Positions 18,506-38,333 of a stretch of 64,000 nt of DNA are shown in pieces; the stretch's first letter is position 1; the number at the start of each line of letters is the position of its first letter. The notes under the pieces are model-generated. The model did not search any database, was not told the DNA's origin, and saw nothing but the letters and a program-made list of their open reading frames with translations. The position numbers and the translations under genes were made by a program. The stretch comes from Pseudogymnoascus verrucosus (lineage: Eukaryota): assembly GCA_001662655.1 (NCBI GenBank), contig KV460274.1; one strand, given 5' to 3'.

Positions 18506-18619
18506 GTCTTCATGGCTCAGTTGGTTAGAGCGTTGGTCTCATACTTCAAGTATGACGTAACTGTCAAACAGTCATGTGATTCCATCCAAAGGTCGTGAGT
18601 TCGAACCTCACTGAGGACA
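18506..18619 (+). tRNA. tRNA-Met(CAT), elongator type, with about 40-nt intron (18544-18583)
   Basis: Acceptor stem GTCTTCA/TGAGGAC, D-arm GCTC..GAGC, anticodon loop CTCATA, T-arm GTGAG-TTCGAAC-CTCAC, downstream T-run. Confidence 0.93.
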
Positions 18620-24023: not shown

Positions 24024-24116
24024 TTCCGAACCGGGGAGTCGAACCCCGCGCAACCGCGGATTCATAATTCTTTCGAATGGTGAGAGGCGGATATGTTACC
24101 GATACACCAGTTCGGA
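24024..24116 (-). tRNA. tRNA-Glu(CTC) with short intron
   Basis: Minus strand reads TCCGAAC..GTGTATCGGTAACAT..CCGC-CTCTCA-[intron]-CGCGG..CGGGGTTCGACTCCCCG-GTTCGGA. Confidence 0.9.
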
Positions 24117-33611: not shown

Positions 33612-33893
33612 GCCAAGGAATTTGTGACGGTCTTAAAACTGGAAGCTATGCCAAGGTGTAGCATCAGGTATTGCGCCTCGTGATAAGCCTTCCCCAAAAG
33701 GCTTTGGCCCGACGGTCGGTCAATAGCCAAGTCAAACATACGGGGCACTCACTGATAAGACCCGTGATGGCCATTTCATTCGTCTGTTCTCTGACTAAAT
33801 ACACTTATCCACAGAAATCAATTATCGTGGGAGAGCGATCCCTAGCATCTTGGGCGTTTTAGGGGTAATTCGCCAAGCTATCCCTTTCTTGGC
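33612..33893. promoter_or_regulatory. cluster of PacC-type GCCAAG sites upstream of alpha-CA
   Basis: GCCAAG at 33612, 33650, 33726 and 33872; CTTGGC at 33888. Confidence 0.5.
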
Positions 33894-34530
33894 TCTCACA
33901 TAGCGCTTACCACTTCCCGTTCGTCGATAGGTGGCTGGAACAAATGTCCAAGAACATCAATCAAAATGACCCTTACGACATGATTGGCAGAAGCTTGTGT
34001 ATCACCTGGAAAACAAGATGCCCAATTGTTTTGAGCCAATTATGGTCGGCTTGGATGCGTGTTCCTAGTATCTGTAGATGGTGGTTTAAGGTTGGCGAAG
34101 TCGGTCGAAAAGCGGGCCGGGGCGAAGTCCAGTGCGATCTACAAGGGTCCCCGCTCATAATCTCCGGGGATAAATTGGAGCCTCGATCATCTGAGGAAAC
34201 TATTGTAATTCTCATGGGGCGTCCAGAGCCACATGAGCCAATCGAGAAACCGAACAAATCTCTAGAGTGCTACAGAGCCACCACCACCAGCTGCTATCAC
34301 ACAGTTGCGTTAGTGGTAGCCTCCTTGCCAAGGGTATTTCGTCTCACTGTGCTTCACGTGTGGAATTCTAGATTCATACCGTATCCAAAGTTTAATTTAA
34401 ATTACAGTATCCAGAGTCGTTCCAGCGTTATTCTTTTCCCTAATAACGACCCGCCAAAACAAGGCCCCTTCATGAATATACCGGCCCTGAGAATGTACCG
34501 CCCCTGCCAGATCAAATCCAGAGGCGGCAC

Positions 34531-37500
34531 TTAGCTAAGGAGCTCCTTAATATCCTCGAGGCGCTGTACTTTCTTTTCCTCGTCGCTCATCATGCCTAGA
34601 GAGCTCGCACTGCACGCAACAGGTCAGCCTTTCGATCTCTAATCTTTCATTCACCGAGGCCCGTCAGGCCAACGAATGAGAAAGTCGAAAACAGCAAAAA
34701 AAAAACATACAACAGTAGGTATTCGCTGGTGGTCACCCACCCAACTACTAATCTACCGATTTCAAGCTTGTGTATGGCAGAGCGGACGGGATGCCCAATT
34801 CTCTTGAATCTATGGTCGTATGTGAAAGTTGTGGACGTATCCATGCTTTTGAGGTGGGTGGGCATGCGCAGGATAGGGATAATAGGCTGGACTTCCCACA
34901 CCCTTACCCCCACCACATCACAAGCCCAACTCTAACGCACATAAACGCGCAATAAAATAAAGAGAGATAGTAAAACTCACATAAACTTCTTCCGCTCCTG
35001 TATCCGCAACATCCGTTCCTCCACGCTCTCTCGCACGATAAACCGCTTCACCTCCACCTCTCCCGTTTGCCCCATTCTATGAACGCGATCAATGGCCTGC
35101 GCCTCAACCGCATAACTCCACCAAGGATCCATCATATACACCCTTCGCGCCATGGTGAGGTTGAGCCCCACCCCTGCAGCCCGAAGACTAAGTAGTATGA
35201 CGGTGAATCCCTTTGCGTCGCGGAAACTTTTCAGCACGGCTGCCCGCGCTTTCATCGCCATCGTCCCATCCAGCCGCAAGAAGGCCACTCCAGCACGTGT
35301 CAGCGCTGGCTCAATCAGAGACAGGAACGACGTGAACTGGCTGAATATAACGCTCTTCGTGCCTGGGTGCTCGCGTCGCAGGGCCTTGAGTTGACTGATC
35401 AGCGCCGTAATCTTAGCACTTGAGTTTGAACCAAGACGCTGCAATGCAATCCGTGGCTTCGCGTCTGGAGCATCGGGGTCGACGTCATGCTTGACAACCT
35501 CGAAGATGTCGCGCGTATTGAGAGGTTCACGGCAGTTGAAGCAGCGTGGCGCATCGCCCTTGTCTACCTGGTGCGAGATATAGTCTAATAAACACTTCTT
35601 GCATGCCGAGTGCCAGCATCCAGTGACGGTTTGTTCGATCATTGGCTCTTCGCTGCAAATGGGGCATTCGTTATCCGCCTCGTCTCTGATTTGCTCGAGG
35701 ACGTGCGCACCAAAAGCGTTGGCATCTGCGCTGTCATCTGTCTCGGCTGTGAAGCGCTCGATGAGACTTTGTAAGTCCATATCGTCACCAAGTCCGCTCA
35801 CAGCGTCAGCAGCTTCGTCAGCTTCCAATTCATCCGCAACAATGTTTTGCTTCCGAACTAGGATTGGGTGGCAGCAAGTCTGGCGGAGCCGGAGGATCTG
35901 TGCGAAAATTGACGTATACGCTTTCATTACTGTGCCTGCCTCAACGTTGGCAGCAAATGCGCGCTTCGCACGAAAGAATATATGCTCGTAGACTTCGCGC
36001 TCGGCCTCAGATAACTCTACATCCACAATCTCTATCGTCTTCGGCGGCAGGGGAACGAGGGCCTCACCACTCGGCGTCTTCATATCCTTCGTTCTGCGCA
36101 GCACAAGCGGTTCAAGGACCGTCTGCACAACGTCAAGAGCACGCATAAAGTCTTTGCTCTCAAATGGCACACTGATGAATGTTTTCCAGAAGGAAAAGTT
36201 GCTCCATGGCTCAACTCTTAAGAACCTAACCAACGAAAAGAGGTCTTCGAGGCGGTTGACAATTGGCGTGCCAGTCAGGACCCATCGATGCTCTGCCTCG
36301 ATTTCGTAGCACGCTCTTGCCGTTTTTGATTGTCGGTTCTTGATGTGGTGCGCTTCATCTAGGATAACCCTGAAGAAGTTCAACGAAAATAGGCCACCAT
36401 GAGTGCCTCTGTCGCCATTCCTTGCTGCCACCTGGTTGAACTCCGATAGGACTACACCATAACTCGTGATGATAACATTTGGCGCAGAAGCAGCATTGGC
36501 TGCGCAGCATAGACTCTGCAAATTTACAGCTTTCTCATTGCCATAGTATACAACGCTCTTCAGTGTTCCTTCTTTGGACGCATTCTCAGCTTCGCTCTGC
36601 CATTGTGCCAAAAGTGACATAGGGGCAACGACGAGAGTGGTGCATGGGGCTCTCTCGACGGAAGAGAACGTTTGCAGCCTAGGCAAATGGTTGACAGAAG
36701 TTATCGTAGGCTCTCCGTCTTGTAATTTCATCGCGACATCAGATTTATGAGAGTGGATCAGACTCATCATCTCAATCGTCTTTCCCAAGCCCATCTCATC
36801 GGCTAAAATCCCTCCCAAGCAATGCTGCTCTTGTACAGGGAATTCGACCGACAGTTCGCCAGAGTAGGGATTGAGATAGAAATTATCTATGCCCTCTACT
36901 GATGGCAATTCTTGGTCGTCCATATCCTTCACCGGCCATACATATTCTTCCCACAAAGGATGCATAGATACCTCTTTTTTCTCTGCCTTTTCATCTTTTT
37001 CCTTTGCCATCATCCAGTGCAGCGCTTGCTTCTGGTAAGGCCTTAGGTCCATCGCAAATGTATCCGCCGGCTCCGCTTCAGGGGCACTGAAGTCAAAAGA
37101 TTGGGCCTTCCTGTACAAGGTATCCAGCTGGTCCTGTTCTAATTCCTTGCCTTCCTCGGTATCCGATGACGGCGAAGAGCCAGGTTCCCCTCCTGACTTT
37201 TCGTTTTTTGCTGCCTCCTTTTCATATTGCTCGGCTACCTCAGCAGCTTGAAGAAGGCCCTGACGCTTGTGCTTTGTAGTAGTCTCGCTCGTTCTTGAAG
37301 GGAGAAGATTCACCTCCACCAAGAGTTTAACCAGTGCAACTTGCCGTAAGCGCAGGTCTTTTTCCTCGGAAGTCTCCTTTTCCTCAAATAGACCGGTCGT
37401 TCTATTATCTGGTGGTTTGAATCCAGTGTTATCGAATGCAGATTTTAGTAGCATGCAACGCAACTGTAAGAAAATGGTATCATTTGTTCGCACCCTATCC

Positions 37501-38333
37501 GGGGCATAAACGCAGACCCCCTCGAAGCTGCATACTTGTTGGTCAATTAGAGTCGAGACCCAATTTGCCGTCTCTCTCGAAAGCCTTCCAACCTCCTCGC
37601 CCCTAGAATTGGTAAACCGCACAATAACATCTATTCTCCGGGAAGCAGCGCCCTTTGTCTTTGGTGTAACTTGCAATGGAGCGATTTTGTTCTTGCCTAC
37701 CTTAACTGGCGGAAGCTTTGGTGGCTGAATTTTCTGACGCTCGATCCGCACTCTCTCCCCATGCTTAATAAGGGCTGTGCCACTTCTGGTGGCCCACCCC
37801 TCTACGCCAAAAGCGCCTATATACCGGGACTCGGGTATCCGCCGAAGATTTGCAATCGGGTGCAGGGTTTGTTTTGAGCTTCGCCCAACATTGGGCACTT
37901 CTGGTTTCACAGGGTTTATCGTCAAGGGCTGTAACGCAGCGGCGCTCGGAGTTGAAGCCACTGCTACTGTTGGGCCTTTCCATGACCCATCAAAGTACAT
38001 ATTTATCGCCCTTTCCATATTATCTCCAGACGCTTGCTTCAGTAGTCGCCAGGTGTCGGAATCGATCTTGTCGCCGATGACGAGCTCGAATGTTTCCCGG
38101 TCAGAGACCAGTGCGCTCTCGGAGCTCGTATGATGTTGCACGTTCGTTTGCGCATCGCGGTCGTCTAGAATTGCTGCTCTGGGACTTCTGTGTCCTGCTT
38201 CAGAGGCAGTGGTATCAAGCTCGGTAGGTCCTGGGGTTGCTGGACTGGATTCATCGACCTCAAGCTCTTCAGGCTTATCCGTAAAGAACCTTCTCTTCTT
38301 CGCCGGTCGTCCGTCTGAATCAAAGGAGTCCAT
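34531..38333 (-). CDS. RAD5: DNA repair helicase/E3 ligase Rad5 (HIRAN, SNF2, RING)
   Basis: GGILADEMGLGKT, DEAH, RING CPIC..CWHSAC..C..CFNC and QAIDRVHR. Exon 1 is 38333-34981, intron 34980-34610, and last exon 34609-34531 gives ...KKF-I-ASSLGMMSDEEKKVQRLEDIKELLS*. Confidence 0.96.
34705..34823 (-). rRNA. 5S rRNA gene (dispersed type), inside RAD5 intron
   Basis: Minus strand reads ACATACGACCATAG...GCATCCCGTCCGCTCTGCCA...TTAGTAGTTGGGTGGGTGACCACCAGCGAATAC..TGTTGTATGT, about 119 nt with paired ends, followed by a T-run Pol III terminator. Confidence 0.95.

Follow-up and report, generated by a model that had tools for sequence, protein, structure and literature searches.

How did a complete 5S rRNA gene come to lie, in sense orientation, within the last intron of RAD5, is it still functional there, and does it matter to its host gene? 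We addressed these questions for a 64,000-nt stretch of Pseudogymnoascus verrucosus DNA (the window). The answer that we moderately favor is that the intronic copy is a functional passenger, i.e., a weakly expressed Pol III gene that undergoes birth-and-death evolution and is neutral for RAD5.

Anatomy of the RAD5 locus and of the 5S gene

RAD5 and the 5S gene are located on the minus strand, and the locus contains the following features:

34981..38333, minus strand: RAD5 exon 1 (UBA, HIRAN, SNF2, RING, and Helicase_C domains), with the 3′ end ...RKKF + AT
34975..34980, minus strand: RAD5 5′ splice site GTGAGT, within which lies the TGA that ends the unspliced form after KKFM
34610..34980, minus strand: RAD5 last intron, 371 nt, GT-AG, phase 2 (AT/T, Ile), with an exact joint in run X16
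34704..34823, minus strand: complete 5S rRNA gene (RF00001 model positions 1–120 of 120), variant U16, A63, A70, U107
34696..34705, minus strand: run of ten T resembling a Pol III terminator, its first two T within the Rfam match
34623..34628, minus strand: branch-site consensus GCTGAC, as read from the sequence
34610..34612, minus strand: RAD5 3′ splice site CAG, from the sequence and the X16 joint
34531..34609, minus strand: RAD5 exon 2, the last 26 residues and the stop

Exon 1 is a single ORF that starts at 38333 and closes at the TGA of the donor site. The encoded protein has the Rad5 architecture (HIRAN, SNF2 with an inserted RING, and Helicase_C) and is 99.9% identical to a P. verrucosus Rad5 that is annotated with exon 2. 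The exon 2 peptide, IASSLGMMSDEEKKVQRLEDIKELLS followed by the stop, is exactly the C-terminal sequence found in annotated Pseudogymnoascus Rad5 proteins. The preliminary description of this DNA placed the break of the RAD5 frame at GTGAGT (34980) and its resumption after GCTGAC..CAG (34610), and all of these coordinates were confirmed. An ORF of 221 codons on the plus strand (33869–34534) has no Pfam match.

The same description claimed a complete same-strand 5S gene with a T-run in the 371-nt intron. The Infernal scan with RF00001 bore this out: the match was full-length and scored 75.8 bits (gathering cut-off 38, E 3e-14) on the strand of RAD5, with the ten T after it. T-rich tails also follow other 5S copies of the genome. 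Neither ARAGORN nor Rfam found a tRNA upstream of the intronic 5S gene. Elsewhere in the window, Rfam detected a tRNA gene with an intron of ~40 nt at 18506–18619 on the plus strand (55.2 bits), which was missed by ARAGORN; the latter instead reported an undetermined tRNA at 24024–24116.

Compared to the major 5S type of this genome, which is represented by 30 identical copies, the intronic gene carries the changes C16U, G63A, G70A, and C107U, a combination found in this copy alone. The four changes form two Watson-Crick swaps, C16-G63 to U-A and G70-C107 to A-U, in helices II and V. In an alignment of seven 5S sequences, all 22 tested pairs of helices I, II, and V were standard, two of them via a double change; helices III and IV, which are outside the 22 counted pairs, do not differ from the major type in sequence. 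Under a null of C>T and G>A changes, for which a generous count of 25 pairs was also used, four changes would form two pairs by chance with a probability of 2e-4 to 6e-4. RIP was rejected as the sole cause of the four changes because they pair up. MFE folding did not single out the 5S gene (z −1.5 and −1.8), and the pairs were counted on the alignment instead. A70-U107 was seen in all three complete fungal-type 5S genes that were found in contigs from other records, and the variant may therefore be partly ancestral. Fungal-type 5S genes occur on contigs filed in bacterial genome bins (L137–L140), which probably represent contaminating fungal DNA. The internal control region (A box, IE, and C box) is present, with a C box of the major type and differences only at 63 and 70; the box limits were taken from the Xenopus numbering in the available part of PMC6204057.

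Origin of the insertion and its effect on RAD5

The last intron of RAD5 was compared across 80 RAD5 loci from metagenomes, a set that includes several near-duplicates. Orthologous GT-AG introns of 48–116 nt (median 53 nt) were present in 69 of these loci, whereas three had no intron and eight were non-orthologues. The intron analyzed here is about seven-fold longer (371 nt vs the median of 53 nt, n = 69). A 5S search over all 80 loci found none, and Rfam detected no 5S in the 20 loci to which it was applied. The comparison of RAD5 orthologues that the preliminary description had proposed thus has a clear outcome, i.e., the 5S gene is absent from all 69 introns outside the genus-level group. 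Its view that a 5S insertion enlarged an older short intron is upheld by these intron lengths and by the lack of 5S in all 80 loci. Together with the exact joint in run X16 (described below), the short 5S-free orthologous introns indicate that the 5S gene entered a pre-existing short intron and that splicing was retained. Around the insert we found no convincing direct repeat that might represent a target-site duplication, and no terminal repeat; the insertion is old.

The relatives' evidence consists of assembled contigs of runs X14 and X16 (organism J) and X7 (organism F). Contigs of all three runs pass from RAD5 exon 1 or exon 2 via the intron flanks into the 5S gene, which is therefore present in the RAD5 intron of three organisms (this one, J, and F). 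The intron flanks differ from those of J at a minimum of 26 of 251 sites (at least 10%) and from those of F at 12 or more (at least 5%). An X16 contig with a depth of 58.2 skips exactly 34610–34980, with CT..AC ends and a shorter side of 30 letters; that X16 is RNA is the tool's guess. The 34981/34609 junction, for which an RNA check had been suggested, was thus seen in one contig of a relative. No spliced joint was found in X14, which has the same organism code J, or in X7, and X12 had no coverage there.

It could be argued that a 5S repeat was mis-joined into RAD5 during assembly, since 5S is a 40-copy repeat. We regard this as practically negligible: the copy has four private letters, the X16 joint skips exactly 371 nt, and in two other organisms contigs connect both flanks with a 5S gene in the same intron. 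The misassembly that the preliminary description had named as a way to refute its claim is therefore excluded.

The relatives' copies are not identical to the copy analyzed here. An X16 contig shows a 3-nt insertion near 5S position 76 in the copy of organism J. The X16 and X7 contigs terminate at 34747, i.e., 30 letters from 5S position 107, and one X7 contig starts at 34778, i.e., 30 letters from position 16; the X14 contig terminates at 34732 and thus carries no position-107 signal. If the assemblies used 31-letter graphs, the relatives would carry non-major letters at 107 (X16 and X7) and 16 (X7), as deduced from contig ends rather than from directly read letters at 16, 63, 70, and 107. 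The intronic 5S copy of organism J may be decaying. Since it carries the 3-nt insertion, an intact 5S gene is perhaps dispensable for the intron.

A role of the 5S gene in RAD5 expression had also been proposed, in that Pol III/TFIIIA occupancy could affect elongation or splicing. In this reading TFIIIA/Pol III, or the folded 5S, would slow elongation or splicing and tune the ratio of full-length Rad5 to the KKFM form. The seven-fold longer intron with its T10 run agrees with such a role, and X16 contains unspliced contigs that cover the intron (depths 20.6 and 29.7) beside the spliced one (58.2), which is a hint only, as contig depth is a poor measure and gives no retention rate. X16 had no contig over the downstream intergenic DNA that X14 covers. 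However, retention of the intron leads to a stop after KKFM or KKFL in 60 of the 69 short orthologous introns as well. This stop is a by-product of the phase-2 GT(A/G)A donor. The predicted end of the protein at KKFM upon retention was correct, but it is a generic feature of this intron. Moreover, exon 2 is both conserved and in use, a relative splices the intron, and the 5S gene was not retained in other fungi and seems damaged in organism J. No test showed an effect of Pol III or TFIIIA on RAD5, and nothing measured ties the 5S gene to it. We consider a regulatory role very unlikely.

The KKFM end is also frequent in public gene models. Among the 120 homologues listed, 38 proteins end with the exon 2 peptide, 76 with KKFM, and 6 otherwise; the KKFM-ending class of these listed homologues consists mostly of unspliced gene calls on fungal contigs. 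Models stopping at KKFM make up 7 of 18 scorable Pseudogymnoascus Rad5 proteins vs 0 of 34 from other named fungi, after two Pseudogymnoascus and four other proteins were dropped as truncated or fused. The 5S-bearing intron thus coincides with frequent gene-model errors in this genus. The public Pseudogymnoascus models that miss the last exon are P0005, P0007, P0128, P0130, P0131, P0133, and P0134. They provide a weak hint at a genus-wide long intron. The proteins with the missed exon are scattered over the protein tree and do not form one clade, and the pattern is therefore unusable for dating the insertion; it may reflect annotation pipelines.

The genomic 5S family and the flank of the intronic copy

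The genome contains at least 43 RF00001 matches, which are distributed over many contigs and almost always differ in their flanks. This confirms that 5S genes are dispersed in this genome, as the preliminary description had assumed from other filamentous ascomycetes. Gap-free alignment was possible for 42 copies, 30 of which are identical (the major type) and five of which form a second type. The latter is defined by C26, T54, and C57 (L033, L034, and L035; G000:C31, C59, and C27). Two copies of the second type form a direct tandem at a contig end, spaced by 205 nt, another two form an inverted pair, and no matching partner change for C57 was found among those tested. Isotypes of 5S rRNA also exist in Neurospora. 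In L040:1585 and L041 (G000:C44:66884 and C20:317614), the first 19 nt are swapped for the same unrelated upstream sequence, and L039 (G000:C102:59-178) is a RIP-like pseudogene in which most of the 14 changes are C>T and G>A.

Forty-one loci were screened for intronic location. In 14 cases, a coding ORF terminates no more than 450 nt upstream of a 5S gene: in RAD5, a donor site lies at the ORF end, one other ORF has a natural HDEL end, and one has a weak internal motif. The RAD5 copy is the only one shown to be intronic among the 41 loci, in a screen that is weak because it misses UTR introns and small exons; its coding-score version missed RAD5 exon 2.

The intronic copy also differs from the others upstream of the gene. 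The other intact copies have a TATA-like block at −30 to −24, with a literal TATA in 26 of the 39 intact copies, whereas the intronic copy has lost its TATA-like box, which is eroded to TCAAAA at −29 to −24. Of the 39, it alone has no TA step between −36 and −20, and it lacks the T(−26) that is kept in 35 of them. With a fixed-position matrix, two other copies score below the intronic copy, their box being shifted. The −15 A, −7/−6 AA, and −1 C of the other copies are kept.

The sequence immediately upstream of the gene is shared with other loci:

34824..34916, minus strand: shared 5′ flank of ~90 nt, 85–87% identical to L135 and L136 and more weakly similar to L145 and L144

L135 consists of this flank and 5S positions 1–41 with T16, and L136 of the flank, a 5S head, and a SINE3-like body; L145 and L144, where the flank match is weaker, both have T16. 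T16 therefore occurs in three of the four flank-sharing loci, none of which contains a full-length 5S gene, and no intact 5S copy screened shares the flank. Since the flank is common to these sister loci, the gene moved together with it and not as a bare 5S retrocopy. The flank could have been transferred with the intron as either recipient or donor. Judged from sequence, the intronic copy represents an old 5S sub-lineage without a TATA box, of which no other intact member was found. A hairpin in the 5′ flank was considered and rejected (z −1.6 here and −0.1 to −1.2 in the sister loci).

Matches to the 5′ end of 5S number 84 in the genome, about twice the 43 RF00001 matches. In most of the ten such loci examined, a 5S head is joined to a common body that contains GGGTGAG repeats. 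They belong to a SINE3-like family (L123–L132, L136, L144, and L147; e.g., G000:C13:439939 and C40:218008) in which 5S positions 1 to ~62–76 are followed by this body and by a repeated T-rich tail. The body is also seen as loose ends in the relatives' runs. This build matches that of AfuSINE3 as given in the available part of PMC5063351, and TRIM elements (Helenus/Ajax), as far as described in the accessible text of PMC10886601, do not fit. The intronic copy itself was rejected as a SINE3 element, as it has the full 120 nt followed by the T-run and no SINE body. In the SINE3-like element L128 (1426–1460), 34 of 35 nt are identical to the flank upstream of the intact 5S gene L002, which suggests that 5S heads may exchange or copy flanks by recombination.

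A further 5S remnant was found near RAD5, outside the intron:

33989..34047, minus strand: decayed 5S head, model positions 7–62, ~480 nt past the RAD5 stop

This relic has an E of ~0.001 in the window, a score not reached in any of 500 shuffles, and carries the major C16. No other close match to it was found in the genome, and organisms J and F have this region as well.

State and significance of the intronic copy

Whether the gene is alive was judged from its conservation. Since the split from organism J, ~6 changes would be expected under neutrality, and the rough probabilities are 0.05 for two or fewer changes and 0.002 for none; the same test for organism F gave 0.048, likewise rough. These values point to continued purifying selection on the intronic 5S gene in this lineage, and hence some Pol III transcription from the internal promoter is predicted.

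The copy could instead be silent, i.e., a young pseudogene that was a functional 5S gene at landing, has since been deprived of its TATA box, and is still undecayed here. Its upstream box is the most eroded among the 39 intact copies, its sister loci are all broken, the J copy has the 3-nt insertion at ~76 and probably further changes, and the four changes of the copy here are all in the RIP direction (C>T or G>A). On the other hand, no change breaks a pair, although the flanks differ by 5–10% or more from those of the relatives, and the eroded box is common to the sister loci and therefore predates the period of conservation. We consider a silent copy rather unlikely.

Another reading couples the 5S gene to its host: Pol III would act only when RAD5 transcription opens the locus, or the RNA would be cut from the excised intron. 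A minor 5S isotype would then rise with RAD5, e.g., after DNA damage, and the intron would explain the survival of the sub-lineage. The copy is indeed the only one of 41 shown to be intronic, the only one without an upstream TA step, and the only intact member of its sub-lineage, and it is oriented in the same sense as RAD5. In C. elegans, intronic tRNA genes respond to host promoters (PMC4999229, available in part), and a processed, TFIIIA-independent 5S exists in Yarrowia (PMC2566860, likewise available in part). Against this reading, it is a single copy of ~40 that is absent from 69 of 69 other orthologous introns, is apparently decaying in organism J, has kept its own T-run terminator, and has no conserved flank structure (z −1.6). 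Host coupling is accordingly improbable, and we are similarly doubtful, if slightly more so, that a TATA-less 5S isotype survives only by sitting in RAD5, with its synthesis coupled to RAD5 transcription.

For the functional passenger, the following course of events is proposed. A dispersed 5S gene with ~90–110 nt of 5′ flank and its T-run would have entered the last RAD5 intron, which is old and measured ~50 nt, in an ancestor shared by several Pseudogymnoascus species. Since the intron ends kept their splice signals, the spliceosome would remove the enlarged intron and Rad5 would be normal, as seen for the relative. The sister members of the old sub-lineage were truncated or turned into SINE3 heads, as their sequences show. 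The intronic copy would stay folded, would probably be weakly transcribed from its internal promoter despite the eroded box, and would add a minor isotype to the 5S rRNA; in one relative, decay of the copy seems to be under way. It would be a passenger without a role in the control of RAD5. What speaks against this reading is that no read shows the variant as RNA, that the conservation statistics are rough, and that this copy alone of the 39 lacks the TA step and has lost T(−26), while 5S transcription in Neurospora reportedly needs a TATA box (Tyler 1987, as cited in PMC6204057). In addition, sense intronic tRNA genes are less occupied by Pol III in C. elegans (PMC4999229, in its available part). 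Transcription is probably weak because of the eroded box and this tendency of sense intronic Pol III genes. Birth-and-death evolution of 5S has been described in filamentous fungi (Rooney and Ward 2005, as cited in the available part of PMC5555474). If it is a passenger, the copy is a clean example of the birth, divergence, and death of a dispersed 5S gene, in which an intron shelters the last intact member of a sub-lineage. If host coupling were true, a sequence-marked minor 5S rRNA would be made when a damage-tolerance gene is on.

In either case, the four private letters make the copy directly traceable in reads and ribosomes. They are a natural tag for two questions: does a fungal 5S gene that lacks its TATA box produce RNA in vivo, and is a nested type 1 Pol III gene driven or suppressed by the promoter of its Pol II host?

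Our literature search, thin on subscription journals and supplements, found no publication that describes a 5S gene within a spliceosomal intron of a fungus. Several known systems are partly similar. Like snoRNA-like intron-encoded RNAs, the 5S gene lies in sense orientation in a spliced intron, but its host position is not kept (0 of 69 introns outside the genus-level group). Fungal SINE3 elements (AfuSINE3 and SINE3-1_AO; PMC5063351, in part) resemble the 5S-headed elements of this genome, and L136 and L144 share the flank of the intronic copy, which, however, is a full-length 5S gene with a T-run and without a SINE body. In the dicistronic tRNA-5S genes of Yarrowia lipolytica (PMC2566860, in part), dispersed 5S genes also occur in an unusual transcriptional setting, possibly without the normal upstream context; here there is no upstream tRNA, and the upstream unit is a Pol II gene. 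The intronic tRNA genes of Caenorhabditis (PMC4999229, in part) are likewise Pol III genes in Pol II introns that are kept in the orthologous introns of relatives. In contrast to these, the gene here is a 5S gene (TFIIIA, type 1 promoter), a single case vs a large share, and conserved only within the genus. All sequence tests identify the copy as a 5S gene, and its closest features are those of dispersed ascomycete 5S genes, with scattered single copies, major and minor types, relics and pseudogenes, and a T-run terminator. These genes have a TATA-like box near −30, as do the other copies here, whereas the intronic copy does not; it further differs by its place in a coding-region intron, its single-copy isotype, and its two compensatory swaps. 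The two swaps, the most eroded box of 39, and the flank family are new beside the position of the gene and were missed by the preliminary description. What is particular to this locus is the coincidence of an intronic place, a lost TATA box, a private compensatory isotype, and the status of sole intact survivor.
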